A DNA stretch of 57,926 nt from an uncultured Flavobacteriales bacterium (GCA_913063375.1 CAJXXR010000020.1:1-57926), one strand, 5' to 3'. Positions 18,076 to 37,125 are shown, counted from the stretch's first letter. Numbers and translations: made by a program. The notes: generated by a model from the sequence alone, not told the origin.

Positions 18076-21000
18076 CTATTTCTGAGACAGTACATTTCTA
18101 ATACCATCCAATCCTTCTGTTACAGATTCTATCTGAGAAACAATCATAGCCATTTGATTGTCTCCACCAAAACCTTTTAATTTTTGATTCTTTAAGAAAG
18201 TTCTTTTGATAGCTTCCCAACGAGTCATCTCCGTCGGTTCAATCCATCCAACCAATTCTTTAAACTTCAACAAATTTGCTTCCGCACTTGTTGTAAGCGT
18301 TTGAGATTCGTTTTCATAGGCACTTAGCACAAGCGTCTTTAATTCCTTTTCATTCATTATAGGAATAATCTTCTCTGCTATCTTATTCATATTTCTATAA
18401 GATCCTTGAAGCTTAAAAGAAGGCTCCTCTCTATATTGATCCTCCATGGCTGCAGACTTGATATACTGCATATTCACTTTCAATATGATATCACGTACCT
18501 GAATCAAATGTTTCAATACTGCAACATAATCATTGATCTCTTCTACAGTATGATTGGATTCAAAGGAAATTCCCTCTTGACTATCTGTTGTTGCCAGTTT
18601 AATAAGCGCATATAAATCCTTCTGACTTTTACCAGACAAATTGCGAAGGGTAGAATTTGAAGTCAAACAATTCTCTATATAACTACTCTTAAATACATCG
18701 GCACTGTCCCCGATGATATCCCCTAAATTGTAAATATCAGCTCTATTCGCCAACATATCTGGAATCTGAAACTTATCTCCACTTTCCGTATATGGGTTCC
18801 CAGCCATTACTACACAAACCTTCTTTCCACGAAGATCGTACGTCTTACTTTGCCCCTTGAACACACCTTCAATCTTTCTTTGCCCATCACTCAAGGAAAT
18901 AAACTTCTGCAGAAATTCTGGATTACAATGTTGAATATCATCCAAATAAATCATGATATTATCCCCCATTTCAAATCCTAAATTCAATTTCTCAATCTCC
19001 TCCCTTGCTCCAGCATTTGGTGCACTTTCAGGATCCAAAGAAGTTGTCTCATAGCCCAAGGAAGGCCCATTTATCTTTAAGAAAATCACCCCCAATCGAC
19101 TGGCGATATACTCCATTAAAGTAGTTTTCCCATATCCGGGAGGAGATATCAATAAAAGCATTCCCATTAAATCAGTTCGCTTATTAGCTCCAGCTGTCCC
19201 AATCTGTTTGGCTAGATTATCCCCTATTAATGGCAGGTACACCTTATTGATCAACTTATTTCGAACAAAAGAGCTCATTACCTTTGGCTTCAATTCATCC
19301 AATTTCAAATCCAGCTTATAACGATCTATAAAACTCTTTTTCAAAGTCTTAAATTGATTAAAAGCCGGAACTTCATTCAGCACAAACCCAAGCAACCTCT
19401 TTTTATAATCTTGATAATCCAGGTTTAATTTCTGCTTCTGAATCAAGGAATGTGTTCCATTTAGACCGTCAAGATCCATTTTCAACTCAGTATCGATCAA
19501 ATGCCTTTTATCTGGCCCTGACGTCAACAGCAACATGGAGGCTTCTGAAATTAAATCCTCACTTGTTGGAGTATGAGATTCTGAGTAAGCCTTCAACCAA
19601 CTTTTGGTAATGGAATATTTTGACGAGGCTTTTACCAAGTTTTTAGTCGATTCCTCAAAGCTGGTTTTCAATTTATTTTTATTCAAATAATTTGTAAAAG
19701 CTTCACATAGATCAAAGGCTTCCTTACCAATACTAAAGCTATCATCTGAGGCCAATTCTGTAAATAGATACTTCGATACCTCCACAATATCCGCTTCAGT
19801 AAAAATACCTTCCTCAAGAATAAATTCACCAATTTCCTCACTCAAATCATGAATGAGGTCATCAAATACTTTTGTATTAGGGAAAGCTTTCAAAATATTT
19901 CCTATTCCCTTTATTTGATGATTTAAAATAGAACTCTTATCAGCATCAATAAACAGATTCCAATAAAAGGAAGCACAAGCTCTTGCCGTAGAAGAGTACT
20001 TCAAGACTCCACCCAAATGACCTATCTGCAACAAGGCCTTTACAATAATCAAAGCATCCAAATCATGAACACCTTTTACATAACCTTCGTCATACCTAGG
20101 AGCCATCGTCTCCTCAATCAATTGCAACAAGGCTTCATCGGTTCCTTCCAGCCATTCCGAAAGGCTTTGCGTACCTTTTTCTATAACCTGCAACACCAAC
20201 CAAGCTAAGTACTCAGCACGGTAAATATTTTCATTTTCAGAGACCAAGCCCTGCTTCCATACAGGTCTAGTTCTTAAGAAATCAGGATCTACAATCTGCT
20301 CAAAAAAATTGGTCCCTGTAATATGGTAATACATCTCATTATTCCTTGGAACAATAGACAGATCCAGGAGTTGATTGTTGACAGAAAACTGATGTTTCCC
20401 AAAGGATATAATTCCATCTCCTTGATAAAGTTCTGACTTATCTCTAAGTTGTCTTATAGCTTCTTCATGCGTAGACTTCAACTTACTCTGGATATTATCC
20501 GACTTTACGGTATCACCTAGTTCAACCAGGTCTTTGATAATATTCCTAAGTTTATCAACCATTAGGTCTGATGCCAAATACCCATTGATAGCATTTACAT
20601 CCTTCATTCCAGATAGACGAGTATGAATCCCCTTAATTATTCTTTCAGCAGAAAATTCTAACTGGGCAGTTTTTTTATTTCGTCTTTCTGTAAGTTGAAC
20701 TTTACGAGACTCAAATGCATTGTAGACTTCTTCTCTTTTTTCTGAGATCTTATTCAAAAAGGAATCAAATTCACCAAACTTACCTTCCAACTCTTCGAGC
20801 TGAATCAATAATTTCGTCAAATACTCTTCACATTTCTCAGCTGTATCTGAGATATCCAAATAATTAACCGCACCCTGACCAATCAGCTTCAATTGAGAAT
20901 GGAAAACAGCCTCTCCCTCTGTCAATTGTAAATCCTTCCTTTTTCTCTTTAGGACGGAATTGATCTGATTAAAACGGGCATAGATGGCAGAAATATTATT

Positions 21001-23072: not shown

Positions 23073-25163
23073 TTAGTTTTGAATGCCTAAAGCACTTGGC
23101 GTGATATCTCCAATTCCAGCAGACTTAACAGCCGACATAAGATCATTCAGCACACCAGTAGTAGAAGTGTTATTGTTTTCTTGCATCATTCTAAACACAA
23201 TAGTAGAAATAGACAAGTTTTTCAAATCTTCTGAACTAATCCCAAATTGATCAATTAGACTTCTAATTTTTTCATTCAAATTTCTCCCGTCTACTTCGTC
23301 TAACAATTGCCCTTTCAATTCAGTCAATATTGCACTATTATTGATGGTTCTCTCTACACGTTTTCCGTTAGATATCGCACCAATAATTTTATCAAAGAAT
23401 ACAGCTTCTCCACCAACAATATCAATTTTGGCAGTTCTCAACGCTGTAGAAAGCACATCAGCTTGAGCATCCGCAATATCCTTTTGAATATGTATTTGAG
23501 CCAATTCAACTTGCTTTTGCATGTCCAATTCTAGCTTAAACTCTTCATGTTCTTTTCCAACACCATCCAACTGCTTCATTGCATCTGCTTTTCTGTGGAT
23601 CCCGTCAGCTTCTACATGGTATTTTTCTTTACTTACAGCGGCTTCTGCAAGTCCTTTCTTCTCATCAGCAATTGCTTTCAATTCAATTACCTGAGCTTCC
23701 GCATTACCCATTTCAACATCAGCCTTAGCTTGTGCTGATTGTGTTAATTCAATTGCTTTTGCTTCTGCAATAGCTTTCGCCTCCAGTATTTGCGCCTCTG
23801 CAATTCCTGAAGCTGCTTCATTTGCAACAGTGGCTTCTGCCATCACCTTGATTGCTTCTGATCTTTGAACAGAAGATTCCTGCTCTGCCTTGGCATCAAT
23901 CATGATTTGTTCAGCTTTAAACTCAGAAGATTTTTTACCGGCTTCCGCAGCTTTTATTTGTTGAACTAAATTAGCCTCGGCCAGCTCTTCGGCTTTAGTT
24001 ACAGCAACCAATTTTTCACGATCCGCTTGAGATTTAGTCTTAGTATCTTTGATGCTTTCCTCTTCAATAACAACCGTTTTTTCAATCGAAACACGCTCTC
24101 TAATTACCTCTTGAATACTTTTCTTCTCTTCTTCAATGGCCTTTTCTTTGGCAATTTGAGCAAGCGTTACTATTCTTTCTCTTTCCGTTACCTCCAACAA
24201 TCTATCCTTTTCAACCTTTTCAGTTTCAACGGCAGCGGTTCTCTCTTTATTTTTAGCAGCAACAATAACCTCTCTTTCCTTGTTTTGTTCTGCTATCTCT
24301 ATCTCTTCCGAAGCAATAATACGAGCCCTTTCAGACTTTAACCTTTCCTCTTCTACAACTTTAGCAATTTCCGCTTCTTCTCTAGATTTGATATTGGCAA
24401 CTTCCCTTTTTTGCTTTTCTTCAGTCTCGGCCAATTGTTTTTCCAATTGCAGAATAGCTTCCCTAGCTTCAACATCTTGTTTTGTAATGGTCTTCTCCTT
24501 ATTCTTTTCAATTTGATTGGATTCAATTTTTTCACGAGACGTGATTTGAATAATCTTCTTAATACCTTCAGCATCTAGAATATTATTTTGATCCATCTTG
24601 AACAAAGGTGTTTGCTCCAAATAATCAATGGCAGCATCATCCAAGATATACCCATTAAGATCTGTACCCAAACTATTTAGAATTTCCTCTCTAAAGGCAT
24701 CACGCTTATTGTATAGATCTACAAAGTCGAATTTTTTACCTACTGTTTTCAAGGCCTCTGAAAACTTTGAATCAAACAAATCATTCAATGACGCAGCATG
24801 CGAAGCCCTTGCACATCCTACAGATTGAGCTACTTGAATAACATCCTGAGCTGTTTTATTTACACGTACAAAAAACACAACCTTAATATCAGCACGCATA
24901 TTATCCTTACATACTAATCCATCAGAACCTTGACGCTCTATTAGAATATTTTTCAAGGAGATATCCATCACCTCCAATTTATGAAGGACAGGTACTACCA
25001 TCATTCCATTAAAGGATACTTTCGTACCTCCAACTCCCGTTCGAACTAGTGACTGTCCCTGAGACGTTTTTTTGTACCATTTAGCAACCATTCCGATGAC
25101 TCCCAACAATACGAGAACCAAAATTATTGTAACCATAAAAGTTGCATTTTGTAACATTTCCAT
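23073..25163 (-). CDS. Flotillin-like SPFH (band-7) domain protein
   Basis: N-terminal TM anchor, an SPFH core, then a long Glu/Ala/Lys-rich coiled-coil flotillin domain. 696 aa, like FloT/YqiK. Confidence 0.85.
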   Translation of the reverse strand: MEMLQNATFMVTIILVLVLLGVIGMVAKWYKKTSQGQSLVRTGVGGTKVSFNGMMVVPVLHKLEVMDISLKNILIERQGSDGLVCKDNMRADIKVVFFVRVNKTAQDVIQVAQSVGCARASHAASLNDLFDSKFSEALKTVGKKFDFVDLYNKRDAFREEILNSLGTDLNGYILDDAAIDYLEQTPLFKMDQNNILDAEGIKKIIQITSREKIESNQIEKNKEKTITKQDVEAREAILQLEKQLAETEEKQKREVANIKSREEAEIAKVVEEERLKSERARIIASEEIEIAEQNKEREVIVAAKNKERTAAVETEKVEKDRLLEVTERERIVTLAQIAKEKAIEEEKKSIQEVIRERVSIEKTVVIEEESIKDTKTKSQADREKLVAVTKAEELAEANLVQQIKAAEAGKKSSEFKAEQIMIDAKAEQESSVQRSEAIKVMAEATVANEAASGIAEAQILEAKAIAEAKAIELTQSAQAKADVEMGNAEAQVIELKAIADEKKGLAEAAVSKEKYHVEADGIHRKADAMKQLDGVGKEHEEFKLELDMQKQVELAQIHIQKDIADAQADVLSTALRTAKIDIVGGEAVFFDKIIGAISNGKRVERTINNSAILTELKGQLLDEVDGRNLNEKIRSLIDQFGISSEDLKNLSISTIVFRMMQENNNTSTTGVLNDLMSAVKSAGIGDITPSALGIQN

Positions 25164-25203
25164 AATCTAATCTGTTTGTTTGTTTATTAGTTTCTTTAAA
25201 AAT

Positions 25204-25860
25204 TTAATCCAATGTTTCGTAAGCCTCTACAATGTAAAATTGAGATTCCTTAATATGGTTTACCACCAATATTCTATCTCCCCTTTTCACTTGACCTTCT
25301 GTAGTTTTGATATTTATTCGATAATTTGAACCAGAGATGATCATCTCTCCTTGCCCCATTCTTGTACTATTGGCAGAAACCACGACATATCCTACTGCCC
25401 CAACCAAATCCTGAACTTCATCAGCATCCTTATCCAACAATGCAAATATCTTAACAAATGGATAGGTCACTGGCTTTGCGACCAACAGACTCACAATAAA
25501 AATGGGCAACAATAATAAGAGTGAAAATAAGAAAGAACCATTTCCCAACATATGATTTACCGTTACAGACAAAAGCCACATCGGAATTACCAAAAAGGTT
25601 AGAAAAACCATTAAAGGTATTTTATCAATATTGAAAAAGGACAGGACATTATTTAACCAGGATACTGAAATATCAGGATTTCCATCACCTTCCACTTCGG
25701 CATCCACTTCAACCTCTGCCTCCATTTCAATCTCTATATCAAATGTGCTGATATCCAATGCTCCGAATATTACAAGCAGCCAATAAAAGATTATAAATAC
25801 CAGCAATGCAGTTGGTATGAAATTTACCGCAGAAAAAGCGGCATGAAAAAGTTCCATCAT
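25204..25860 (-). CDS. NfeD-like membrane protein (short form, C-terminal OB-fold)
   Basis: Hydrophobic N-terminal half with 3-4 TM segments and an acidic EIEMEAEVEVDAEVEGD insert. The C-terminal beta-barrel (GQGEMIISGSNYRINIKTTEGQVKRGDRILVV) resembles YuaF/NfeD partners of flotillins. Located 40 nt upstream of the flotillin gene. Confidence 0.55.
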   Translation of the reverse strand: MMELFHAAFSAVNFIPTALLVFIIFYWLLVIFGALDISTFDIEIEMEAEVEVDAEVEGDGNPDISVSWLNNVLSFFNIDKIPLMVFLTFLVIPMWLLSVTVNHMLGNGSFLFSLLLLLPIFIVSLLVAKPVTYPFVKIFALLDKDADEVQDLVGAVGYVVVSANSTRMGQGEMIISGSNYRINIKTTEGQVKRGDRILVVNHIKESQFYIVEAYETLD

Positions 25861-25919: not shown

Positions 25920-26618
25920 TTATTTATTCAATCCCATTTTGGCTTTAAGGGCTGCCAAACTAGTAGCCGCATTTAATTCCTTGAGAGTCGTGTCAATTTC
26001 AACGCGTACCAGTTCATCAGAATCATTCAATTGAGCATATCCCTCAGCACTTGCTTCTTCCTGCAGTACTTTATCTTTCATTCTCTCCAACATGGCAATG
26101 GTACCAGATGAATCTATTTGCGCTATGTCTTTATTCAATTCTTTGGTAGTGGAAGCAACTACGGCACGTGCCCTCAATGTTTTCAATTCAGAATCCCATT
26201 GATCAACATTTAACTTCACTCGGCTAATATTGGCATTAAGCTGGGACAATGATGCATCAATCTTTTGCTTGTTCTTAGATGACTCCTTACTAAATTGTAT
26301 CTGCTCTTCTCGAAGAATCAATGCCTGGGTCGCCAACCAGTCAGCTTGCTCTTTATCCAAATCTCCATTCTTAGCACGTTCCAAAAGAATGCTAGCCTTT
26401 TCTTCATAATCTTTAGCCTTTGCAAGAAATTTTTCATGCTCATTCCTAGCTCTAATAGACATCGCCTTTACTTCTGCAAATGCTTTAAGGTGACTCTCTA
26501 AATGATTTTTCATATCTCTAATTCCTTGCTCCATAAGTTTAATTGGATCCTCCAATTTATCGATTGCAGAATGGGATTCTGCTTCACCAATCTTAAATAA
26601 ACGTTTTAAAAAATTCAT
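25920..26618 (-). CDS. PspA/IM30 (Vipp1, ESCRT-III-like) family protein, paralogue 1
   Basis: 232 aa coiled-coil protein. N-terminus MNFLKRLFKIGEAESHSAIDKLEDPIKLMEQGIRDMKNHL is collinear with PspA. First gene of the cluster. Confidence 0.85.
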   Translation of the reverse strand: MNFLKRLFKIGEAESHSAIDKLEDPIKLMEQGIRDMKNHLESHLKAFAEVKAMSIRARNEHEKFLAKAKDYEEKASILLERAKNGDLDKEQADWLATQALILREEQIQFSKESSKNKQKIDASLSQLNANISRVKLNVDQWDSELKTLRARAVVASTTKELNKDIAQIDSSGTIAMLERMKDKVLQEEASAEGYAQLNDSDELVRVEIDTTLKELNAATSLAALKAKMGLNK

Positions 26619-27172: not shown

Positions 27173-28714
27173 TTGAAAAAAAGTCAATCTAGAATACTAA
27201 AATTAGCACTTTTCGCCACAGGACTATCTGGGATAGTTGCTGAATATATTTTATCCACCCTTGCCACCTACTTCCTTGGAGATTCTGTATTCCAATGGAC
27301 CATGATCCTTTCCATCATGTTATTTTCCATGGGGCTTGGAGCTAGGCTTAGCATGAAATTCAAAACCAATATTTTAGAAAAATTTCTAATTGCTGAATTT
27401 CTACTAACCCTTCTTACTTCAACTGCCGCCCTAACTACCTATTTCTTTATGGGGCATGCTGAAAATCTGGGATTCATCATATACAGCTTCTGTATTAGTA
27501 TTGGCCTTTTGATAGGTATGGAAATCCCACTGGTAACTAGGGTTAATGAAGAAAATGAAGAACTAAGAACCAATATTGCAGGTGTATTAGAAAACGACTA
27601 TTATGGAAGTTTGATAGGTGGTTTATTCTTTGTATTCATTGGTCTTCCTTATTTAGGCCTTACCCACACGCCATTTATTTTGGGTACCATCAACTTCCTA
27701 GTAGCCATATTACTTTTCATCAAACTAAAAGATCATATTGCTAAAAGGTTCAAAATTGGCTTTGCCATCACCATTCCAAGTTTAATAATTATACTAAGCT
27801 TCCTTAGCTATAATGCAGATGAGATAGTTCTATACGGGGAGCAAAAAAGATACAATGACAAGGTTGTTTTCTCTAAACAAACCAAATACCAAAAAATCAC
27901 AATCACCCAATGGCAAGAAAATTACTGGCTATACCTTAATTCCAGCAAACAACTTTGCACGTTTGATGAGTGGCTTTACCATGAACCACTGGTACATCCA
28001 GTAATGAAACTAACAACACACCCTAAGCATGTATTAATCCTAGGCGCAGGAGATGGTTGCGCAATCCGAGAGGTATTGAAATACGAAAATGTTGAAAAAA
28101 TCACCCTCGTAGACATTGATCCTGAGATGACCAAAATTGGTAGGTCCAACGAAATTTTCGTTAAGATGAACGACAGCGCCTATTACGATCCCAAAGTAAC
28201 GGTTATCAATCAGGACGCATTCCAATTTCTAGAAAATAATGAAGAATTTTACGATGTCATGATCCTAGATTTCCCTGATCCAAAAAGCATTGATATCAAC
28301 AGAGTTTATACCAAGGAATTTTACACCCTCTGCAACAAAAGACTTCGCCCATTGGGACATATCATTACCCAAGCCGTAAGCCCATATTATACAACAAAAG
28401 CCTTTAGGTCCATTGAAAAAACATTAGCTGCCTCTGGATTCAATACACTTCCAATTCACAACCACGTATACTCTTTTGGCGAGTGGGGATGGGTAATAGG
28501 TTCCAAATTCCAAGATAAGGAGAAAATGAAACAGCATCTACTGAAATCCAATTATCAAGATTTAGATGTACAATGGATCACCAATGAATCCATTAATCTT
28601 ATGACCTCCTTTGGCAAAGACCTTATCAAAGCAGATGACATAGAAGTAAACACCATTCATAACCCTGTCTTATACCGCTATTACCTAGACGGAACTTGGG
28701 CTAGATACCTGTAA
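27173..28714 (+). CDS. Membrane-anchored spermidine synthase-like aminopropyltransferase (paralogue 1)
   Basis: About 200 aa with ~7 TM helices, then a Spermine_synth domain (VLILGAGDGCAIREVL, TLVDIDPEMT, ILDFPDP). Confidence 0.75.
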   Translation: MKKSQSRILKLALFATGLSGIVAEYILSTLATYFLGDSVFQWTMILSIMLFSMGLGARLSMKFKTNILEKFLIAEFLLTLLTSTAALTTYFFMGHAENLGFIIYSFCISIGLLIGMEIPLVTRVNEENEELRTNIAGVLENDYYGSLIGGLFFVFIGLPYLGLTHTPFILGTINFLVAILLFIKLKDHIAKRFKIGFAITIPSLIIILSFLSYNADEIVLYGEQKRYNDKVVFSKQTKYQKITITQWQENYWLYLNSSKQLCTFDEWLYHEPLVHPVMKLTTHPKHVLILGAGDGCAIREVLKYENVEKITLVDIDPEMTKIGRSNEIFVKMNDSAYYDPKVTVINQDAFQFLENNEEFYDVMILDFPDPKSIDINRVYTKEFYTLCNKRLRPLGHIITQAVSPYYTTKAFRSIEKTLAASGFNTLPIHNHVYSFGEWGWVIGSKFQDKEKMKQHLLKSNYQDLDVQWITNESINLMTSFGKDLIKADDIEVNTIHNPVLYRYYLDGTWARYL

Positions 28715-28717
28715 TCT

Positions 28718-29797
28718 ATGTGGCTATTTAGCAGAAAAAAAGACTTTGGTATTCTGTACTTACCAGTATGGATAATCTGGATACTCCTATTCCTTCTTCC
28801 CAACGCAACACTCCATAGTGAACTTCCATTATGGGTTTGGGTCGTATTCATATTAGGAATAGATGTAAGCCATGTATGGAGCACTATTTTTAGAACCTAT
28901 TTTGACAAGCAAGAATTTAAGAGACACAAAACCATTTTAATTCTAGCCCCGATTTTTGCATTCATTATCCTGTTAGGAATTGCGCTAGAATCTTCTTTAT
29001 ACTTTTGGAGGACATTGGCTTATTTAGCGGTTTTCCACTTCATGAAACAACAATATGGGTTTTTCGCACTCTACAGTGCTAAAACAAAATCTTTTAACAA
29101 ACATAGATTTCTCAATGATAAATGGGTTCTCTACACCAGTATGCTATTCCCGGTACTATTCTGGCATTTCACCGACCGAAATTTTGACTGGTTCCTAGCT
29201 GGTGATTTCTTCTCTTTCAACTACCAACTAAGTGAGCAATTACAAAATGTACTAATCATTGCCTACTGGGGGATTTTACTAGCTTGGTTTATCGAAGAGA
29301 TTCACTTAATCAAAACAAAAGCAATAAAGCTATCATATGGGAGGATGTTATGGATGGGAACCACAGCTTTCAATTGGTTTCTAGGAATTATTTGGTTCAA
29401 CTCTGATGTTGCATTTACGCTAACCAATGTAGTTGCACACGGCATCCCTTATATCGCATTGATAATCATTTATCAAAATGCAAAAAGAAGCACAAAGAAT
29501 ACACTTCTTTATAAAAATGCATTTATTACTGGAGCAAGTATTTTGGTCTTTTCCTTCCTTTTTGCATTTTCTGAAGAATATCTTTGGGATATGTTTCTAA
29601 ACCGTGAAAAAACTGCATTTTTCAACAGTATTTTCCAGTATAGATTTGATAGTCTTACCAATGAAAAACTACAGTCCCTACTGCTAGTCACACTATCATT
29701 ACCACAGGTTACACATTATATCTTGGACGGATTTATTTGGAAAATGAATGACTCCAATCCACATCTTAAAAATATTTTAACAAAAGGAAATGGATAG
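28718..29797 (+). CDS. Polytopic membrane protein with conserved His clusters, function unknown
   Basis: 359 aa, 8 or more TM segments, recurrent His motifs (HVWSTIF, FHFMKQQYG, HGIPY). Starts 3 nt after the stop of 27173..28714 and overlaps the next gene by 8 nt. Confidence 0.55.
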   Translation: MWLFSRKKDFGILYLPVWIIWILLFLLPNATLHSELPLWVWVVFILGIDVSHVWSTIFRTYFDKQEFKRHKTILILAPIFAFIILLGIALESSLYFWRTLAYLAVFHFMKQQYGFFALYSAKTKSFNKHRFLNDKWVLYTSMLFPVLFWHFTDRNFDWFLAGDFFSFNYQLSEQLQNVLIIAYWGILLAWFIEEIHLIKTKAIKLSYGRMLWMGTTAFNWFLGIIWFNSDVAFTLTNVVAHGIPYIALIIIYQNAKRSTKNTLLYKNAFITGASILVFSFLFAFSEEYLWDMFLNREKTAFFNSIFQYRFDSLTNEKLQSLLLVTLSLPQVTHYILDGFIWKMNDSNPHLKNILTKGNG

Positions 29798-31301
29798 AAG
29801 AATGTTCTTAAAGTTAAGCGGAGGATTACTTTTCCTATCTGCTTGTGACAATGATTTTACCCAAAAATCTAAATTGAAAAATACTAGATTTAAAATCCAC
29901 ATCGACTCCAATGATAAAATTGGACACTTGGTACGATCTGCCGTCCAACTACCAATTTCAAGTACCATCAAAACAGAGACATTAATTGTAGGGGCAGGAA
30001 TATCTGGACTATCTGCTGCATGCACATTAAAGTCAAATGACTTTCAACTGTGTGAATTGAATCCAAACTTAGGCGGAACCTCAAGTGCCGTATCTATCCA
30101 TGGGAATTTATATTCACAAGGCGCCCATTACGATTTAGCCTATCCTAGCAATTATGGGAAGGATGGCTTAGAACTACTAGAACAGTTAAACGTTATCCAG
30201 TTTAACAGCACTAAAAACCTTTGGGAATTCAAAGACAAACAATACTTGATCTCTTCAAAAAATGAAGAAGCTTGTTATGATAACGGGAAATTGAGGGCTT
30301 CCATTTTAGAAGATTCCGAATTAAAGAAAAACTTTCTATCCTTAATAAAAGAATACGATAATCAATTCCCCCTACCAAGTACAGCGATCTCATCAGAATT
30401 ACATCATTTAGATCATATTTCTTTTGAAGACTACCTTAGGAAGTATCTACCTATTGACAATCATTTCCTTGAAGCAATTGACTATCAAATGTTGGATGAT
30501 TATGGAGCCGCAAGTAAACAAATATCTGCTCTTGCAGGTATCCATTACTATAAATGCCGCCCCTATTACAACCATCAGGAAATTGAACTATTTTCGCCAC
30601 AAAAAGGAAATTACTACTTCATAGAAAAGATGGTTGAGCAACTTCCTGAAGAAAACATTAACAGCAACCATTTAGTATTTAAGATTGAGCAAGAAGGAGC
30701 CAAATGGAAAGCAGACGTATTGGATGTTTTAAACATGTCAAGAAAACAATTCATTGTAGACAAATTGATTTATGCAGGACAAAAGCACGTTTTAAAATAT
30801 GCTCACCCTTCCTCATATCAAGAATTCAGTGACATAGATTATGCACCTTGGATTGTCATAAATTTAGAATTGGACGACTCACTACTTGACGGAAGTAAAT
30901 GGCAAAATGACTTTTTATCTCCCAATAGATCATTCCTAGGATTTGTTGATTCAAAAAATCAAGACAATACAAACACTCGAGTATTAACAGCCTACCACTG
31001 CTTCCCGGACATACACCACTTTATTGTTCAAAATATTTCAACCCATGCAGAAGACTTGGTAAACGAAACAATCAACAACATATCCCTATACTTTAAAAGA
31101 GATATTAGCCCAATGGTAAAACAAGTCCATGTAAAACTATTGGGACACGCCATGCCAATTCCGAAATTGGGTTACTTAACCAAGCAAAGAGTATTGGAAA
31201 AGGATGGTTTAGCATTTGCAGGGGCTGACACGGGAAGATTACCACTTATGTTCGATGCAATGGATTCTGGAATACAGGCCAGCAAATCGCTCGAAATATA
31301 A
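29790..31301 (+). CDS. Tat-exported FAD-dependent amine-oxidase-family lipoprotein
   Basis: Twin-arginine motif DRRMFLK plus lipobox LSAC. Dinucleotide fold VGAGISGLSAAC...LNPNLGGT, typical of flavin amine oxidase and protoporphyrinogen-oxidase-like enzymes. Confidence 0.6.
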   Translation: MDRRMFLKLSGGLLFLSACDNDFTQKSKLKNTRFKIHIDSNDKIGHLVRSAVQLPISSTIKTETLIVGAGISGLSAACTLKSNDFQLCELNPNLGGTSSAVSIHGNLYSQGAHYDLAYPSNYGKDGLELLEQLNVIQFNSTKNLWEFKDKQYLISSKNEEACYDNGKLRASILEDSELKKNFLSLIKEYDNQFPLPSTAISSELHHLDHISFEDYLRKYLPIDNHFLEAIDYQMLDDYGAASKQISALAGIHYYKCRPYYNHQEIELFSPQKGNYYFIEKMVEQLPEENINSNHLVFKIEQEGAKWKADVLDVLNMSRKQFIVDKLIYAGQKHVLKYAHPSSYQEFSDIDYAPWIVINLELDDSLLDGSKWQNDFLSPNRSFLGFVDSKNQDNTNTRVLTAYHCFPDIHHFIVQNISTHAEDLVNETINNISLYFKRDISPMVKQVHVKLLGHAMPIPKLGYLTKQRVLEKDGLAFAGADTGRLPLMFDAMDSGIQASKSLEI

Positions 31302-32843
31302 CTAATACAAATCCCAATTACCATCTAAATAGTAACGGTACAGTACTGGAGAATTTATAGTATTTACTTCCACCTTAGAGGTGTCAAACAAGGGTTTTCC
31401 AAAAGAAGTAATCAACTGAATAGACTCCCTATTCAACCATTTATTATTCAAATAGCTATAATCAGATTGACGCATTATATCAATCATTTTATCTTTAGTT
31501 AGACGCTTACTACCAATTATCCAACCCCATTCCCCTAAGGTCAAAACCTGATTATGCATCGGTAATGTATGGAATCCGGAAGATGACATTGTAGTCTCTA
31601 TGCACTTAAAAGCCTTAGTAGCATAATAGGGACTTCCAGCTTGGGTAATGATATGACCATTTGGGCGCAATAAACGATAAGCCATCTGATAAAATTCCTG
31701 CGTATACAACTTATTCAAATCGATACTTTTGGCATCAGGTAGATCAACAATTATTAAGTCAAAATAAGTTTCACACTGCTCTAAATATTTAAACCCATCC
31801 TGATTTAATATAGCAACCTTCGGATTAAAAAGGGCTGAATCATTATACTGTGTTAAGCCTTTAAAATCCATTCCTATTCGAGTCATTGCAGGGTCCAAAT
31901 CCACCAAGGTGATTTGATCCACATCCTCGTATTTTAAAAGCTCCTTCACATTAAAGCCATCTCCACCACCAATTATTAGAACGTCCTTATGCTCTGGAGT
32001 CAATGCAACTACTGGATGTACCATCGGCTCATGGTACAAAAACTCATCGAAGGTACTTAGTTGTTGATTTCCATTTATAAACAACCAATAATGCTCCTTC
32101 CATTGGGTAATGGTTATTTTCTGATAAGGAGTTTGCTCCGTGTATACAATCTTATCTTTATACCTAGATTGCTCACCAAACAGAACTACCTTTTCTGAAA
32201 GCGAAAATCCAACCATCAACAACAAACTAATGAAAAAGGAAACAGAATAAACCCACTTTTTTAATTGCGGATAATAGGACTTATAGTTCCAATACAATAA
32301 GACTGCAACAGTAAAATTTAAGGCACCGAAGGCGAATGCTGTATTGGTAATACCCAAGTATGGAAGACCAAAAAAGGCAAATGACAATCCCCCTATCAAA
32401 CTACCAATATAATCCCAAGACATAATATTGGATATATTCTTATCCAAACTTTCATGCTTCTCATTCAAGCGTGTTACTAGCGGGATTTCAAAACCAATAC
32501 AAACACCAATCAATAAGGCCAAACCATAAATTAGAATATGGATGAAATTGGTTGCTGAAGCTAAAGAGTAAACAACTAAAGGAGAAAAACTTATTAATAA
32601 TGATAAGGCAAATTCAACTGCAATAAAAGTGGCCAACAAATCTTTTGTCACAAATCGACTTAGACGACTCCCCACCCCCATTGCAAACAACATAATAGAC
32701 AAAACAACTGTCCATTGTATAATAGTATCACCTATAAAATAAGAGGCAAGGGTAGATAAAATAAATTCAGAAGTAAAGCCAGAAATTCCTGTGGCAAAAA
32801 TGGCCAACTTCAACCAAGTACCCTTGTCGATTTTAAACTGCAT
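31302..32843 (-). CDS. Membrane-anchored spermidine synthase-like aminopropyltransferase (paralogue 2)
   Basis: 513 aa, same architecture as 27173..28714 (VLIIGGGDGFNVKELL, TLVDLDPAMT, IVDLPDA). Its stop codon abuts the stop of the convergent FAD-oxidase gene (TAACTA). Confidence 0.75.
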   Translation of the reverse strand: MQFKIDKGTWLKLAIFATGISGFTSEFILSTLASYFIGDTIIQWTVVLSIMLFAMGVGSRLSRFVTKDLLATFIAVEFALSLLISFSPLVVYSLASATNFIHILIYGLALLIGVCIGFEIPLVTRLNEKHESLDKNISNIMSWDYIGSLIGGLSFAFFGLPYLGITNTAFAFGALNFTVAVLLYWNYKSYYPQLKKWVYSVSFFISLLLMVGFSLSEKVVLFGEQSRYKDKIVYTEQTPYQKITITQWKEHYWLFINGNQQLSTFDEFLYHEPMVHPVVALTPEHKDVLIIGGGDGFNVKELLKYEDVDQITLVDLDPAMTRIGMDFKGLTQYNDSALFNPKVAILNQDGFKYLEQCETYFDLIIVDLPDAKSIDLNKLYTQEFYQMAYRLLRPNGHIITQAGSPYYATKAFKCIETTMSSSGFHTLPMHNQVLTLGEWGWIIGSKRLTKDKMIDIMRQSDYSYLNNKWLNRESIQLITSFGKPLFDTSKVEVNTINSPVLYRYYLDGNWDLY

Positions 32844-32860
32844 TCAAGTAGAATTTAAGC

Positions 32861-33751
32861 CTAAGAAAAGCTCATACAGATTAGCATAGAACCACCCACA
32901 TATGCAAAGGCTTCAATTACAGCAGCGCCTACATTTGGATGTTCTTGGTTGATGATTTCATCTACCAATTTTCTTTTCGGAAGTAAGATCTTATCTGTCA
33001 AGATCCTAGCAATAGGCAATAACAACAGACCAATACCAGTTTCAAACAATAGATTCTCACCCACCATCATCCAACTTTCAGCCTCCATTTGAGCACCGAA
33101 TCTTATCAAATTCCCAATAGCAACTATTGCGCCTGCGAATCCTATTCCAACCGCTACATTATCTTTTTCAATATGCTCATGAATATCATAAGGTGTGATG
33201 GCATTATAAACCAATGCAACCAACATCAAAGCGACTTGAGCAAAGAGCCAGAATAGTAAAATACCAATAAAATTGTCTTGATTCTCTGCTATGACACCGC
33301 TAATAATCAATCCATTTGCAATACAAACAGCTCCCTCAATAACTCCTAAACCAACATTTTGATCTTCTATAATTTCCTTTTTTACGGAATACTTTCTCAA
33401 AACAACCTTATCAGAGATGATCATAGAAACATTTAGCAATACAATTGCCAATAATCCATAAATGGAAATATCTATAATATTATCTACGATATGATCAACT
33501 CCGTCTCCCGCATAAACGGCTGATATGACAATAACCAACCCAACATAATACCCAACATGAGCAAATGAAAAAGCTAGGTTATCTTTTTCCACCAATTCAT
33601 GATCTAAATCGATATCCTTATGAATTAATTGATATACTTTCTTCCCTACTAAAAATAGAACAAAGCTAACAGCCAAGTAAACCAAAGCCGTAAGTAGATT
33701 ATCTAATGATGATAAAAAATTAAAATGCATACTAGTATAGTTTAAATTCAA
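32861..33751 (-). CDS. Membrane protein with two tandem DUF350-like repeats (YjfL-like)
   Basis: Two internally repeated halves, each ...Y..I...D...E....N.A......G..V.......AV. The second ends ITPYDIHEHIEKDNVAVGIGFAGAIVAIGNLI. DUF350 assignment is from memory of the YjfL family. Confidence 0.45.
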   Translation of the reverse strand: MNLNYTSMHFNFLSSLDNLLTALVYLAVSFVLFLVGKKVYQLIHKDIDLDHELVEKDNLAFSFAHVGYYVGLVIVISAVYAGDGVDHIVDNIIDISIYGLLAIVLLNVSMIISDKVVLRKYSVKKEIIEDQNVGLGVIEGAVCIANGLIISGVIAENQDNFIGILLFWLFAQVALMLVALVYNAITPYDIHEHIEKDNVAVGIGFAGAIVAIGNLIRFGAQMEAESWMMVGENLLFETGIGLLLLPIARILTDKILLPKRKLVDEIINQEHPNVGAAVIEAFAYVGGSMLICMSFS

Positions 33752-33759
33752 TTAGGGAA

Positions 33760-34458
33760 TTATTTACCAAATCCAGATCCACGAGATCTACCTCCTGATC
33801 TACTTCTTGATGAAGACCAACCAGATTTTGTAGCACGCCTAGAGAAAAAAGATGGTCTAGACTTCTTAGTTTGAGCAGAATTGGTACCATATTTAGAGTA
33901 CTTTCCTTCTTTTGGACCATAATAGCTTCTTTTTCCATAATAGCCTCCCCCACGATATGTATTATAATCGCTTCTGTAAACAGGTCTGTTCATCATTCCG
34001 AACATCTGACTCATAAACATATATCGACCATAAAATGACCAAAATGAACTACCATTATGAGTTCTCCATTCACCATACTTGGAATCACCCACATATCTAT
34101 AACCTGGAGGAACTGCAACTTTAGATAAGGATCCATCTGGGCCCTTTTCCAAAACAACCATCCCTAAATTACCTTCATTCTTCCAAAAGAATTCTTTCTC
34201 CACTTCTTTCCAATCAGAAGTAGATTCAGTAGGAATACTATCAGCAACACGAATTACCTTATACTTGTGTTTATAGGTCTTAAAGAAAGTCCCATCTACA
34301 TCCATATCTTCAATGATGACAGAAAATTCTTTTTCATCACTTAACTCGACAATATAGCTATCAAGCGGTGATTTTTTATACTCTCGACCACCACAACTAC
34401 TCAAAATAGTAAACAACACTACGGCTATTCCACTAAAAAGAATTGATTTTAATTTCAT
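33760..34458 (-). CDS. Lipoprotein with Gly/Ser/Arg-rich C-terminal tail (possibly DUF1190/YjfM-like)
   Basis: Lipobox LSSCGG. A central aromatic/Met-rich block (FWSFYGRYMFMSQMFGMMNRP) and a GGGYYG...SRSRSGGRSRGSGFGK tail resemble E. coli YjfM. Confidence 0.4.
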   Translation of the reverse strand: MKLKSILFSGIAVVLFTILSSCGGREYKKSPLDSYIVELSDEKEFSVIIEDMDVDGTFFKTYKHKYKVIRVADSIPTESTSDWKEVEKEFFWKNEGNLGMVVLEKGPDGSLSKVAVPPGYRYVGDSKYGEWRTHNGSSFWSFYGRYMFMSQMFGMMNRPVYRSDYNTYRGGGYYGKRSYYGPKEGKYSKYGTNSAQTKKSRPSFFSRRATKSGWSSSRSRSGGRSRGSGFGK

Positions 34459-34465
34459 CTATGTT

Positions 34466-34996
34466 TTATCTAGGTAGAATGTTTGAAAACTCAAACGCAT
34501 CTACATTTTTACCTATTGCCGCACCGAATTCTTCTTCTCCCCATCGGTCAATAGAAATCAACTCCTTGGTTTCAGAATGTACATACATCCAATTCACCAA
34601 TTCAGATCCTTCTTCTTCACCTTCAATATAACAAATTCCTTGACTGGACTCGGTACGCTTATACGTTTTATTATTATACACCAATCTATTCGGTGCCTCA
34701 TCATTTGCAACAATACTATTCACTAAGTCGGCATCAATTTCAAAAATATCCACCTTCTTCCAAACTAAACATACCAATTTATCGTCGTCTTCGACGCTAA
34801 GGTAACAATCTTCAGTCCCAGAATCTAAAAAATATTCTTTGCTATAAAAATTATTTCCCCAATCATAGGTATATACCTTTTTCACCTCCCAAGTTTTCAT
34901 GAAATAATCCACAAGGAATCCCAATTTCATATCATTCAAGGTGAAATCTACATTCGGCTCTTCCTTTTTAGATTTAAAAAAATCAAATATTCCCAT
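34466..34996 (-). CDS. Hypothetical cytoplasmic protein (176 aa)
   Basis: Clean ORF sitting 3 nt after the stop of the upstream K+ channel gene. No diagnostic motifs. Confidence 0.5.
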   Translation of the reverse strand: MGIFDFFKSKKEEPNVDFTLNDMKLGFLVDYFMKTWEVKKVYTYDWGNNFYSKEYFLDSGTEDCYLSVEDDDKLVCLVWKKVDIFEIDADLVNSIVANDEAPNRLVYNNKTYKRTESSQGICYIEGEEEGSELVNWMYVHSETKELISIDRWGEEEFGAAIGKNVDAFEFSNILPR

Positions 34997-34999
34997 AAT

Positions 35000-35815
35000 T
35001 TATTTATTTTTCATGGTTTTACCACAATGCTCACAAACACAATCTTCTTTATCTTCCTTTTTATCCTTTTCAGTATTTCCGAATCCATTGGCTAAAATCC
35101 CAGCCGGAAGCGCAAATATTCCAATACCGAGGATAGCCATTACTCCGGCCATAACTTTACCCATAGCGGTAATAGGATAAACATCACCATAACCAACAGT
35201 AGTAAGTGTAGCTACTCCCCACCACATGGTAGCTGGGATACTCGAAAATGTTTCAGGCTGAACTTCATTCTCTATAAAATACATCAAACTTGAAGCAACC
35301 ACCAATAAAGTTATTACTGCAAAAAGCGATATAATTAATTCCTCTTTAGCAGCTTTCATCACTCTCTTTATATGTGAAAGTGCTTTATTATACCTTCCCA
35401 ACTTTAATATTCTAAACAATCGAAGCAAACGAACCCCTCTCAAAATTCTTAAATCCGCCTTTATTAATAATGGAACGAAGGCAGGGATTATAGCCAATAA
35501 ATCTACAATACTATAGAAGGAAAAAAAATATTTAATACGACCAGCAATTGGCCTACTATAGGCACTCTTCTCAGTAATAGACCAAATTCTTAATAAATAT
35601 TCAATGGAAAAAATCCCTATAGATATCCATTCAAGAATGGAAAAAATCTGTTGGAATTCAATCCTAATCCAGGAAACCGATTCCAAAATAACAGCTAAAA
35701 TATTTAGAAGGATTAAGGTGATTATTAAGAAATCTACACGACGACTTATCTCATCTCCCTTTTTCCCTTTCTCTAAAATTTCGTAACAACGACTTTTAAG
35801 GCTCCTGTAACTCAT
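35000..35815 (-). CDS. Voltage-gated K+ channel (6-TM Kv-like, KvAP-type)
   Basis: S4 voltage sensor RILRGVRLLRLFRILKLGR, pore helix and selectivity filter TLTTVGYGD, S5/S6 helices. The start codon abuts the speD stop (35815/35816). Confidence 0.8.
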   Translation of the reverse strand: MSYRSLKSRCYEILEKGKKGDEISRRVDFLIITLILLNILAVILESVSWIRIEFQQIFSILEWISIGIFSIEYLLRIWSITEKSAYSRPIAGRIKYFFSFYSIVDLLAIIPAFVPLLIKADLRILRGVRLLRLFRILKLGRYNKALSHIKRVMKAAKEELIISLFAVITLLVVASSLMYFIENEVQPETFSSIPATMWWGVATLTTVGYGDVYPITAMGKVMAGVMAILGIGIFALPAGILANGFGNTEKDKKEDKEDCVCEHCGKTMKNK

Positions 35816-36178
35816 TTACGATACTTGCATTATTCCCAATCCTCTCTTTACACTTTGATAACTATGATTTTTTGATTGTAATTTTTCTACCAAATAATCA
35901 TAGGTTTTCAAATAATCCATTTTCAGATTACAGGTGAAAAAATCCACTGCAGCATAACCGTTCTCTGGCCAAGTATGAATAGCCAAATGACTCTCTGCAA
36001 CAACAACAACTCCTGTTACTCCTTGAGGTGAAAATTTGTGAAAAACTGATTTTATCACAGTTGCTTTGGAAGCCTTAGCAGCTGCAATCATATCCACCTC
36101 CAATTCCTCCATATTATCTAACGCATCAAAAGAACAATCATTGAATTCCATTAAAATATGTAAGCCTAATTCCGCCAT
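35816..36178 (-). CDS. speD: S-adenosylmethionine decarboxylase proenzyme (class 1, pyruvoyl-dependent)
   Basis: 120 aa. Self-cleavage/pyruvoyl site VVVVAESHLAIHTWPE and FTCNLK match SpeH/SpeD. Confidence 0.8.
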   Translation of the reverse strand: MAELGLHILMEFNDCSFDALDNMEELEVDMIAAAKASKATVIKSVFHKFSPQGVTGVVVVAESHLAIHTWPENGYAAVDFFTCNLKMDYLKTYDYLVEKLQSKNHSYQSVKRGLGIMQVS

Positions 36179-36346
36179 CTATTTATTCCTTTTCTTTTAT
36201 ATCGTCTCCAAAAATACACAATGGTAAAAATTATAATTACCGGAAACAACAAACTAATAATCAGTGAAAAAGTCCACCAAATTGCCAAAATAATCAATAA
36301 TTGAATGATTAATGGGATTATATTCTTGAAACGCACAATTATAATT

Positions 36347-36402: not shown

Positions 36403-37125
36403 CTATCCTTTATTTTCTTCTTTTTTCGCTGCCATCTTTGCCTTCAAAGCTGCCAAGCTATCTGATGCTTTACTAGCACCTGGATTACCAATAGCTTTAT
36501 CAATTTCCTCATCTACAGATCTTGATTCATTGGAAATATCACCATAAGCTTCTGACAAGGCTTCTTCTTGCTCTACCTTTTCCTTCATTCTTTCTAACAT
36601 AGAAATGGTATCTGAAGAATCAATAGAAGCCATTTGCTTATTTAGATTTTTGGTAGCGGAAGCAACCTTCACCCTAGCTTTTAAGGTTTTTAGCTCATTC
36701 TCCCATGAACCAATCTTTGAGCGTAAGGTCTTAACATTGGCTTCCAATTTTCTAACATTACCACCAAATTGAACCTGATCCTTTTGTAAACGAGTAGCAT
36801 TAGCCTCGCTGTCCACCTTTCGGTTTAACGCCTCGCTTGCCAATCTATCTGCTTCCTCTGCACCTATTTGGCCTGATTCAGCTCTTTGCAATAACAACAT
36901 AGCTTTTTTCTCATAATCTGAGGCTTTATTTTGTTCATTGCTAATATCATTTCTTGACCTGATCTCTAAAGCTTTCACTTCAGCCAATGCCTTTAAACAG
37001 CTTTCAAGATCCTTTTTCATATCTCTAATCCCCTGCTCAGTCATTTTGATAGGGTCTTCTAACTTATCCACTACGGAATTTACTTCTGATTTACCCAAGG
37101 TAAATAATCGCCTAAATATACTCAT
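36403..37125 (-). CDS. PspA/IM30 family protein, paralogue 2
   Basis: 240 aa. N-terminus MSIFRRLFTLGKSEVNSVVDKLEDPIKMTEQGIRDMKKDL parallels paralogue 1 and PspA. Confidence 0.85.
   Translation of the reverse strand: MSIFRRLFTLGKSEVNSVVDKLEDPIKMTEQGIRDMKKDLESCLKALAEVKALEIRSRNDISNEQNKASDYEKKAMLLLQRAESGQIGAEEADRLASEALNRKVDSEANATRLQKDQVQFGGNVRKLEANVKTLRSKIGSWENELKTLKARVKVASATKNLNKQMASIDSSDTISMLERMKEKVEQEEALSEAYGDISNESRSVDEEIDKAIGNPGASKASDSLAALKAKMAAKKEENKG

Follow-up and report, generated by a model that had tools for sequence, protein, structure and literature searches.

Operons that join PspA to a membrane-fused aminopropyltransferase (TM-Spermine_synth), DUF350, a lipoprotein and DUF4178 were described by Ravi et al. 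2024 (PMC11237479), who, in the passage dealing with them, suggest "aminopropylation of other substrates" and cite Li et al. 2019 (Biochem J 476:2579). Their account of PspA partners also includes band-7/flotillin, YqiJ and AAA+ proteins. For Pseudomonas aeruginosa, Li et al. 2024 (PMC11107197) put forward a hypothetical make-then-oxidise route to surface norspermidine, with SpeD2/SpeE2 (PA4773/PA4774) followed by the Tat-exported SpdH, a protein of 620 aa. The locus considered here has features of both and lies in a window of 57,926 nucleotides, the whole stretch of DNA that was analysed, from an uncultured Flavobacteriales bacterium.

Layout and conservation of the locus

The four open reading frames of the initial annotation were recovered at their positions (Table 1). 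The plus-strand trio APT1-HisTM-FADox is as tight as had been claimed, the coordinates giving a 3-nt gap (28715-28717) and an 8-nt overlap (29790-29797). The stop-to-stop arrangement was also read in the sequence and no terminator-like hairpin was found at the junction, in agreement with the annotation; convergent ends overlap or abut in 12 of 34 related loci.

A context absent from the initial annotation is the six-gene minus-strand operon, in the order AdoMet decarboxylase, K+ channel, DUF4178, lipoprotein, DUF350 and APT2, with the genes of 31302-34996(-) spaced 7-17 nt, and the PspA genes on both flanks (25920-26618 and 36403-37125, both minus strand). The position of PspA paralogue 2 is kept in 28 related loci. 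The 696-aa and 218-aa proteins have no Pfam matches, and their homologues adjoin the cluster in loci L001 and L038; from position only, they resemble flotillin and NfeD/YqiJ, putatively. The DUF3686/AAA+ ATPase also adjoins the cluster, in L001 and L075.

Table 1. Features of the locus, with positions counted from the first nucleotide of the window.
Feature	Position	Strand	Evidence or description
APT paralogue 1 (APT1; "H-type", upstream of HisTM)	27173..28714	+	513 aa, seven hydrophobic N-terminal segments and spermidine-synthase domain, PF01564, NF002956
HisTM, 10-helix membrane protein, undescribed family	28718..29797	+	359 aa
FADox, FAD oxidoreductase with Tat signal and lipobox, amine-oxidase/PPOX/phytoene-desaturase superfamily	29790..31301	+	503 aa
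Stop-to-stop junction of convergent operons, TAA/CTA	31299..31304	.	read in sequence
APT paralogue 2 (APT2; "D-type", beside DUF350; last gene of minus-strand operon)	31302..32843	-	513 aa, NF002956
Duplicated DUF350 (YjfL-family) membrane protein	32861..33751	-	PF03994 4e-56 in two stretches; eight hydrophobic segments
Lipoprotein, Ser/Arg/Gly-rich tail ending in invariant Gly-Lys	33760..34458	-	lipobox LSSC
DUF4178 protein	34466..34996	-	PF13785 3e-21
Six-TM potassium channel, TTVGYGD filter	35000..35815	-	PF00520 and PF07885
Class 1b AdoMet decarboxylase SpeD, predicted aminopropyl-donor source	35816..36178	-	TIGR03330, PF02675, motif AESH
Candidate micro-ORF, ~40 aa, one hydrophobic helix, basic tail	36166..36288	-	overlaps SpeD start
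PspA/IM30 paralogue 2, upstream of SpeD	36403..37125	-	PF04012 4e-45
PspA/IM30 paralogue 1, divergent from APT paralogue 1	25920..26618	-	PF04012 4e-30
696-aa coiled-coil protein and 218-aa four-TM protein, downstream of PspA paralogue 1	23073..25860	-	homologues beside cluster in related loci
1627-aa DUF3686/AAA+ ATPase	18076..22959	-	PF12458 4e-182, PF00004

Synteny was counted after 12 proteins of the window had been mapped by tblastn to 80 genomic loci. Among the 74 loci with sufficient flanking sequence, 56 have FADox directly downstream of HisTM; an aminopropyltransferase lies directly upstream of HisTM in 56/77. Aureispira and Saprospiraceae have one colinear operon, DUF4178-Lipo-DUF350-APT-HisTM-FADox, with a single transferase, and such single operons in related genomes show that the two operons of the window are one system. 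The order [AdoMet_dc]-DUF4178-micro-ORF-DUF350-TM-SpeE-Amino_oxidase-HisTM was seen in Spirosoma, Hymenobacter, Bacteriovoracaceae, an Obscuribacterales-like contig and other metagenomic contigs, and in these operons the genes of FADox and HisTM share 1-17 nt. The window FADox has 25% identity to its Spirosoma counterpart along the whole protein (E 2e-34), and HisTM has 39% to its own.

Since dozens of genomes hold this set of genes, its arrangement in the window is not due to chance. The comparison shows that SpeD, the two transferases, DUF350, the Lys-terminated lipoprotein, DUF4178, the K+ channel, the flavoprotein and HisTM form one conserved gene set, and that in several phyla FADox and HisTM form a dyad with coupled translation. 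This dyad appears to be accessory, since the Shewanella-type operon, as far as it is set out in the source, is without FADox and HisTM. We see about an even chance that the 5.7-kb region is the centre of a PspA-linked membrane-stress aminopropylation system of ~14-19 kb, split into two convergent operons and working by a make-then-oxidise mechanism.

Aminopropyltransferases, donor and acceptor

The two facing paralogues are 53% identical across 505 residues, and both pass the curated equivalog for membrane-fused polyamine aminopropyltransferases, NF002956/PRK03612 (cut-off 472 bits), APT1 with 548.4 bits over residues 3-511 and APT2 with 533.1 bits over residues 7-510. The family alignment places seven hydrophobic segments in the first ~215 residues and PF01564 is matched in APT1, which bears out the 7-TM plus spermidine-synthase architecture read earlier. 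The dcAdoMet-binding and catalytic motifs GxGDG, VDxD, NxD and DxPDx are kept in both enzymes (GAGDG, VDID, NQD and DFPDP, all intact, in APT1; GGGDG, VDLD, NQD and DLPDA in APT2) and are invariant inside each clade. By motif both enzymes are thus shown to be catalytically intact, and aminopropyl transfer is predicted. In a neighbour-joining tree APT1 clusters with the single-copy Saprospiraceae enzyme and APT2 falls within a separate Flavobacteriales clade. SpeD, with 134.5 bits against TIGR03330 (cut-off 75.65) and the self-processing Glu-Ser site (VVAESHLAIHTWPE), probably has decarboxylase activity; neofunctionalised SpeD homologues are known (PMC10407285).

It is conceivable that these enzymes serve ordinary polyamine metabolism, the transferases making bulk spermidine or longer polyamines and FADox acting as a periplasmic catabolic oxidase that scavenges external polyamines for nitrogen, with an incidental linkage to PspA. 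The equivalog match of both transferases, the retention of all catalytic motifs and the bona fide AdoMet decarboxylase inside the operon agree with this, and dissolved polyamines are metabolised by marine bacteria, according to the part of the literature considered. We nevertheless find it improbable, as the genes are tied across phyla to DUF350, DUF4178, the lipoprotein and PspA and not to other polyamine-pathway genes, and a bulk synthase would need no membrane anchor. Furthermore, homospermidine is the main polyamine of most Flavobacteriia, and its synthesis needs no decarboxylated AdoMet. Li et al. 2019 are also said to have found that fusions of this TM-SpeE kind do not produce spermidine. 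The other substrates raised in the cited passage of Ravi et al., with reference to that work (PMC11237479), point in the same direction.

The acceptor could instead be a protein. The lipoprotein, for which no Pfam match was found, ends in GK in 37/37 homologues; a peptide homologous to the micro-ORF stands at the equivalent position in loci L001, L005, L006, L007 and L008. The transferase might aminopropylate the invariant C-terminal Lys of the lipoprotein (of a micro-protein in other phyla) and FADox erase the mark, as a writer/eraser pair on the tail of an envelope protein, in the manner of LSD1. LSD1-type FAD amine oxidases, which are related to FADox, strip N-alkyl groups from lysine. We hold this to be very unlikely. 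The residues following TM7 are rich in K/R in the family alignment, which favours a cytoplasmic catalytic domain, the membrane side of that domain being ambiguous; a conserved C-terminal Lys could equally serve binding or sorting, and the lipoprotein is equated with the micro-proteins by operon position alone. We know of no earlier case in which a protein is aminopropylated, nor of a dcAdoMet-dependent enzyme that works in the periplasm. By operon position, the lipoprotein corresponds to the "LipoSIG+Ctha_1186+Low-comp" gene in the operon given by Ravi et al. (PMC11237479).

The predicted exported flavoprotein and its putative membrane partner

The N-terminus of FADox (MDRRMFLKLSGGLLFLSAC) combines a twin-arginine motif with a lipobox (DRRMFLK...FLSAC). 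Of 115 full-length homologues, 102 carry the RR motif, most of the exceptions resembling mis-called starts, and the majority of the distant orthologues examined likewise bear an RR signal. The lipobox Cys19 is invariant in an alignment of 22 sequences and absent in Aureispira and L091. FADox is predicted from these conserved signal features to be a Tat-exported lipoprotein, as had been proposed.

PF01593 matches residues 71-498 of FADox with 27.9 bits against a gathering threshold of 19.8, and the GxGxxG of the FAD fold is present as VGAGISG. The match is compatible with the amine-oxidase family named by the initial annotation, but PF01593 spans PPOX and CrtI too and does not discriminate amine oxidases, and a closer placement was not obtained; the best structural and HMM neighbours tilt slightly to PPOX, PDS, HpnE and PigB. 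We therefore place FADox, from sequence comparison, at the level of the amine-oxidase/PPOX/phytoene-desaturase superfamily. A PPOX/CrtI/HpnE-like desaturase pair of FADox and HisTM for a lipid, isoprenoid or tetrapyrrole, amine-independent and merely travelling with the transferase genes, has in our opinion only a slim chance.

HisTM belongs to a hitherto undescribed family, with no relatives found in Pfam, NCBIfam or PDB by sequence and fold comparison. The conserved histidines noticed earlier are real, but they do not form clusters: among 255 sequences the invariant residues are D49, H52, H107, Q111, H150, D163, D230, N237, H241, E286, E287, Q330, H333 and D337, with the five histidines scattered among Asp and Glu. 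The positive-inside rule puts H150, D163, D230, H241, E286 and E287 in the periplasmic half of the protein and D49, H52, H107, Q111, H333 and D337 in the cytoplasmic half. HisTM stands without a nearby FADox or transferase in 18 of 74 loci, where its neighbours are mutually unrelated, and it may therefore have a function independent of them.

It is possible, though we rate it as improbable, that HisTM founds a new cofactor-binding polytopic family and acts together with the Tat-exported flavoprotein as a dehydrogenase in the periplasm. Its substrate would be a membrane-anchored amine bearing an aminopropyl group (the head group of a lipid, or the C-terminal Lys of the lipoprotein or micro-protein), and not free polyamine; the transferase domain might then face the periplasm and receive dcAdoMet via its own 7-TM domain. 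If true, the envelope would be modified with cationic groups, and reversibly so, during membrane stress of the PspA type.

A proposed make-then-oxidise route, and the known systems

The best-supported reading is "make, then oxidise at the envelope", where family membership and synteny suggest the substrate and chemistry. SpeD would supply decarboxylated AdoMet in the cytoplasm, and the membrane-anchored transferases would load the aminopropyl group onto an amine at or in the membrane. Candidate acceptors are a polyamine exported afterwards, the head group of a lipid, or the lipoprotein tail with its terminal Lys; bulk putrescine is unlikely. The product would be displayed on the periplasmic face, and the lipid-anchored FADox would oxidise its C-N (or adjacent C-C) bond and so convert or remove the compound, a step that parallels the Tat-exported SpdH proposed downstream of SpeD2/SpeE2. 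HisTM would be the membrane partner of FADox, most likely a haem- or metal-binding subunit that docks it and hands electrons to the membrane, and less likely a substrate translocator. Duplication in Flavobacteriales would have given each half-system its own transferase. The make-and-oxidise module of the initial annotation holds as a functional unit, and its logic is supported by the conserved AdoMet_dc/DUF4178/DUF350/TM-SpeE/Amino_oxidase/HisTM operons of several phyla and by the P. aeruginosa analogue (PMC11107197); its substrate and chemistry stay at the level of prediction.

The Shewanella oneidensis SO_3762-3767 type, as outlined in PMC11237479 for its second group of operons, has in common with the minus strand of the window the TM-fused aminopropyltransferase, DUF350, a lipoprotein with low-complexity tail, DUF4178 and an adjacent PspA, and there, as in the window, the acceptor is unnamed in the passage concerned. 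That outline also gives a CesT/Tir chaperone and an RHH regulator, and the window is without either; no match to CesT, the chaperone paired with PspA, or to DUF2170 was found among the ORFs scanned at 18-41 kb. The window adds to the outlined type the AdoMet decarboxylase and K+ channel in the operon, a second paralogous transferase and the FADox-HisTM dyad. Operons of the E. coli yjfIJKLMC type (group 3 of PMC11237479, as excerpted) hold the PspA-like YjfJ, the DUF350 protein YjfL, a DUF1190 lipoprotein and YjfC, an ATP-grasp protein like glutathionylspermidine synthetase. [quoted passage not shown]

The haem-b anchors MsrQ (of MsrP/MsrQ), FdnI, HyaC and PhsC resemble the window in that a Tat-exported, cofactor-loaded enzyme adjoins a membrane-protein gene with invariant TM histidines on both sides of the bilayer. 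HisTM itself resembles none of these anchors in sequence or fold, nor was any such likeness found to known membrane cytochrome-b or metal-enzyme families, and haem binding in HisTM is putative; the large number of its invariant carboxylates and glutamines points to a role in catalysis or in binding cations and not to a simple wire.

The SpeD2/SpeE2/SpdH pathway of P. aeruginosa is closely analogous to the logic of the window (PMC11107197). SpdH and SpeE2 are not encoded together, whereas the FADox of the window (503 aa) is translationally coupled to a separate polytopic membrane protein, and the transferases are membrane-fused. SpeE2 is soluble, and the SpdH structure, deposited as an FAD enzyme, reportedly has haem bound too. 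The PspA-linked system itself has already been described, though it is uncharacterised, and the pair of predicted exported flavoenzyme and HisTM is among the things that the window adds to it.

Gene layout and the transferase pair

The four genes described in the initial annotation lie exactly where it had placed them, and the coordinates give the 3-nt gap and the 8-nt overlap claimed for the plus-strand operon, which consists of the first transferase, a ten-helix membrane protein (HisTM) and a Tat-signal FAD protein (FADox). The two 513-aa transferases are indeed paralogues, 53% identical across 505 residues, and their identity as membrane-fused aminopropyltransferases is borne out by the NCBIfam equivalog PRK03612, matched end to end with 548 and 533 bits (curated cut-off 472 bits). 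The spermidine-synthase motifs GxGDG, VDxD, NxD and DxPDx are kept in both, and a 56-sequence alignment has seven hydrophobic segments in the N-terminal ~215 residues, in agreement with the seven TM first proposed. The K/R counts of the loops place the N-terminus inside. By the positive-inside rule the dcAdoMet-dependent catalytic domain would then be periplasmic, but the 18 residues that follow the seventh segment are rich in K/R, which argues against such a location.

The second transferase is the last of six tightly packed minus-strand genes, running from 36178 to 31302 with gaps of 0–17 nt in the order SpeD (AdoMet decarboxylase), K+ channel, DUF4178, lipoprotein, DUF350, aminopropyltransferase. 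The hairpin and T run after PspA2 suggest that this operon has its own promoter. An Rfam scan of 22.5–38.5 kb, covering the regions ahead of both operons, found no riboswitch or leader above threshold; the sole matches there were sub-threshold and fell on the terminator-like hairpin at 38.4 kb. A sigma-70 promoter scan, with a model unsuited to Bacteroidota, was at chance level (49 found, 52.8 expected). The aldehyde dehydrogenase was considered as an aminoaldehyde sink and rejected, as it is not conserved beside the cluster in related loci.

The stop-to-stop junction of FADox and the second transferase, where interference had been expected, is real, and no terminator-like hairpin was found close by. 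When 34 related convergent pairs were compared, 12 proved to overlap (4 nt being typical), four are at most 60 nt apart and 18 are more than 60 nt apart; the closest relatives of the window belong to the last group, with 669–1567 nt between the convergent genes. Tight 3'-3' packing is therefore common, may be ancestral, and is dispensable.

Coordinates of features in the window and in related genomic loci (labels beginning with L)
Feature	Position	Strand	Remarks
576-aa paralogues	9473-11203; 12328-14058	-	84% identical, 1.1 kb apart, no Pfam match
DUF3686/AAA+ ATPase, 1627 aa	18076-22959	-	after PspA1
Glu/Lys-rich coiled-coil protein, 696 aa	23073-25163	-	after PspA1; no Pfam match
Four-TM protein	25204-25860	-	after PspA1; no Pfam match
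PspA1	25920-26618	-	divergent from plus-strand operon
Transferase 1	27173-28714	+	N-terminal domain 27173-27830
HisTM, 359 aa	28718-29797	+	
FADox, 503 aa	29790-31301	+	
Convergent junction	31299-31304		TAA/CTA
Transferase 2	31302-32843	-	N-terminal domain 32200-32843
DUF350		-	duplicated
Lipoprotein	33760-34458	-	
K+ channel		-	six TM
SpeD	35816-36178	-	class 1b; TIGR03330, 134.5 bits (cut-off 75.65)
Micro-ORF, ~40 codons	~36166-36288	-	13-nt overlap with SpeD start
GC-rich hairpin, then T run	~36350-36378	-	immediately after PspA2
PspA2	36403-37125	-	directly upstream of SpeD operon
Hairpin, 17 bp, perfect	38436-38473		between A and T runs; looks like a bidirectional terminator
Aldehyde dehydrogenase, 541 aa	38489-40114	-	
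Single-TM peptide, L082	2543-2674		
Single-TM peptide, L085	~3467-3610		
Single-TM peptide, L089	4396-4593		
Single-TM peptide, L090	2747-2929		
Single-TM peptide, L091	~4570-4710		
Single-TM peptide, L092	4483-4623		
Divergent transferase copy	~9100-9990		L021, L029, L031, L039, L073 and other Cytophagales loci

One conserved system across genomes

A HisTM profile search with one genome per species gave 80 loci, onto which twelve window proteins were mapped. Of the 74 loci with enough flank, 56 have FADox as the next gene after HisTM, and in 56 of 77 the gene just before HisTM is an aminopropyltransferase. This triad, in Flavobacteriales and Cytophagales, is usually convergent with a transferase-DUF350-lipoprotein-DUF4178-(K channel)-(SpeD)-PspA arrangement, as in the window. 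Aureispira and Saprospiraceae have a single transferase in a single colinear operon, DUF4178-lipoprotein-DUF350-transferase-HisTM-FADox. For distant HisTM homologues, in Spirosoma, Hymenobacter, a Bacteriovoracaceae MAG, an Obscuribacterales-like contig and further metagenomic contigs, the genes make up one operon arranged (AdoMet_dc)-DUF4178-micro-ORF-DUF350-TM-SpeE-Amino_oxidase-HisTM. Here FADox precedes HisTM, the opposite of the window, and the genes overlap by 1–17 nt; the Spirosoma HisTM is 39% identical to that of the window, and its FADox is a full-length homologue (25% identity, E 2e-34). These overlapping, homologous pairs imply that the FADox-HisTM dyad is an old, translationally coupled add-on to the aminopropyltransferase system. 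Some of the distant operons (L082, L085, L091 and L092) have a Band7-SHOCT gene ahead of DUF4178 genes.

The comparison shows that the donor-making enzyme, the two intact transferases, the predicted exported flavoprotein and its membrane partner form one conserved system, and the window is a rearranged form of this dyad-bearing system.

In a quick neighbour-joining distance tree of 97 transferases, paralogue 1 groups with Flavobacteriales enzymes encoded upstream of HisTM, a clade sister to the single-copy Saprospiraceae enzymes, and paralogue 2 belongs to a distinct clade of Flavobacteriales enzymes whose genes adjoin DUF350. Cytophagales also have two transferases, the HisTM-linked copy being a long-branch protein of ~400–500 aa in which GG[D/E]NG replaces GxGDG and further donor-binding positions are altered. 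Judging from these motifs, this protein may depend on another donor or be catalytically inactive. The FADox/HisTM half thus appears to have a dedicated transferase in two lineages, in differing forms. A short SpeD-like gene and a K+ channel precede the divergent Cytophagales gene.

The Ser/Arg/Gly-rich tail of the lipoprotein closes with an invariant G-x-G-K in all 37 of 37 homologues. Six colinear operons from other lineages have, in the slot between DUF4178 and DUF350, a single-TM peptide of 43–65 aa ending in (Y/H/N)-H-K, and two of the six had been overlooked by gene callers. In the window, the micro-ORF overlapping SpeD codes for a single hydrophobic helix with a basic tail (AIWWTFSLIISLLFPVIIIFTIVYFWRRYKRK...); L001, L005, L006, L007 and L008 have a similar peptide in this position.

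The predicted exported flavoprotein and its membrane partner

The Tat motif and the lipobox cysteine of FADox are conserved among homologues, and the RR signal is present in most distant orthologues, some of them being without the cysteine or having a degenerate motif. The AlphaFold2 model (pLDDT 81) matches the whole two-domain amine-oxidase/PPOX/PDS fold, with human PPOX (26.0) and rice phytoene desaturase (25.9) followed by L-amino-acid oxidase (25.1), a bacterial MAO (24.1), putrescine oxidase (23.5), LSD2 (23.3), SpdH (22.6) and maize PAO (21.2). Profile matches to PDB sequences are confined to the FAD-binding N-terminus, and the weak NCBIfam matches common to the family (PRK07233, HpnE, PigB, PPOX and CrtID) are all far below their cut-offs. 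By fold and profile FADox is thus a divergent superfamily member, leaning slightly towards desaturases and PPOX. These matches neither establish nor contradict the robust grouping with PPOX or PDS that the initial annotation named as refuting. Its make-and-oxidise reading stands in part. The operon context argues for an amine-derived FADox substrate, but the FADox sequence does not.

The distribution of the dyad in Flavobacteriales, Cytophagales and Saprospiraceae raised the idea of a carotenoid pair, a CruF hydratase and a CrtD desaturase. This was rejected because HisTM has no Caroten_synth match, FADox has a Tat signal, and the dyad occurs in AdoMet_dc/SpeE operons outside Bacteroidota too.

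HisTM belongs to a family of 1587 cluster representatives at 50% identity, annotated as hypothetical in every source that names a member. A Pfam search with 20 members, run to E<=10, found no match, and there was no match in NCBIfam or to PDB sequences at E<=10. With a pLDDT of 87 the ten-helix model is a confident one, and loop K/R counts give an N-in topology. Across 255 sequences six tryptophans and the polar residues D49, H52, H107, Q111, H150, D163, D230, N237, H241, E286, E287, Q330, H333 and D337 are invariant; H150, D163, D230, H241, E286 and E287 are predicted in the periplasmic half, and D49, H52, H107, Q111, H333 and D337 in the cytoplasmic half. The five invariant histidines lead us to favour a cofactor-binding protein (haem or metal), and its pairing with a Tat-exported redox enzyme would then resemble MsrP/MsrQ-type arrangements; a catalytic and a cation-translocating role remain as alternatives. 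A PAP2-like assignment was dropped, as the motif spacing misfits and no PAP2 structure was among the fold matches, in a comparison made against PDB structures only. In 18 of 74 loci HisTM has no FADox nearby and the neighbours are unrelated, with no theme shared among an alpha/beta hydrolase, an enolase-superfamily protein, LpxK, MgtE, a GFO/IDH oxidoreductase, a DNA methylase and a patatin. The one fusion of HisTM to an M1 aminopeptidase (P0316) is uninformative.

Proposed mechanism and known systems

The Tat-signal flavoprotein and HisTM in the operon, together with a Lys-ending, membrane-anchored small protein, point to the periplasmic face. We propose that the membrane-anchored transferases would take dcAdoMet made by SpeD and act on an amine at the membrane as acceptor, and that the aminopropylated product would be exposed to the periplasm and oxidised there by FADox, with HisTM as its putative docking and electron-accepting partner.

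Plain polyamine synthesis plus catabolism would also employ a donor-making enzyme, intact transferases and an oxidase. Such fusions reportedly fail to complement an E. coli speE mutant and are said to come from hosts without spermidine, and we consider this explanation unlikely. The Lys-ending tails and the possible periplasmic catalytic domain lead to a more unusual reading, the aminopropylation of protein lysines; with the K/R-rich stretch speaking against that location, it is quite improbable. A desaturase pair with no relation to amines would suit the lean of FADox and is, given the operon context, just as improbable.

In a large subset of these systems the Tat-signal flavoprotein and the His/Asp/Glu-rich membrane protein share an operon, and all versions encode a small membrane-anchored protein with an invariant lysine at its end. 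This makes the question of the acceptor easier to approach, and three candidate handles are now supplied: the substrate of FADox, the cofactor of HisTM and the Lys tail. Should the product be a cationic modification bound to the envelope, polyamine-type chemistry would be linked to PspA/flotillin membrane repair and possibly also to cationic antimicrobial resistance.

Membrane-fused AdoMetDC/aminopropyltransferase clusters are spread across bacterial phyla, and this kind of system is already known from comparative genomics. Three elements are new: the finding, demonstrated here for several phyla, that FADox and the undescribed HisTM family belong integrally to it; the split-and-duplicated architecture in Flavobacteriales; and the invariant Lys-terminated anchor proteins. 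No acceptor has been identified in the accessible literature, a search on the function of mycobacterial Rv2599-Rv2601 found no papers, and nothing specific about the fusion proteins is said in papers that cite Li et al. 2019.

Ravi et al. 2024 describe a second type of PspA-associated operon, in which a spermine/spermidine-synthase-like protein fused to 7TM is encoded with DUF350 (YjfL), DUF4178 and a lipoprotein whose tail is of low complexity; the minus-strand operon and PspA of the window match it. They cite such clusters for mycobacteria too, and propose, citing Li et al. 2019, that the operon monitors polyamines or 'aminopropylation of other substrates'. The three genes that follow PspA1 positionally resemble the flotillin/YqiJ/AAA+ partners of PspA (Ravi et al. 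2024). The nearest published idea to the mechanism proposed here is from P. aeruginosa, where SpeD2/SpeE2 makes thermospermine, which Tat-exported SpdH may cleave in the periplasm to give surface norspermidine (Li et al. 2024, PMC11107197).
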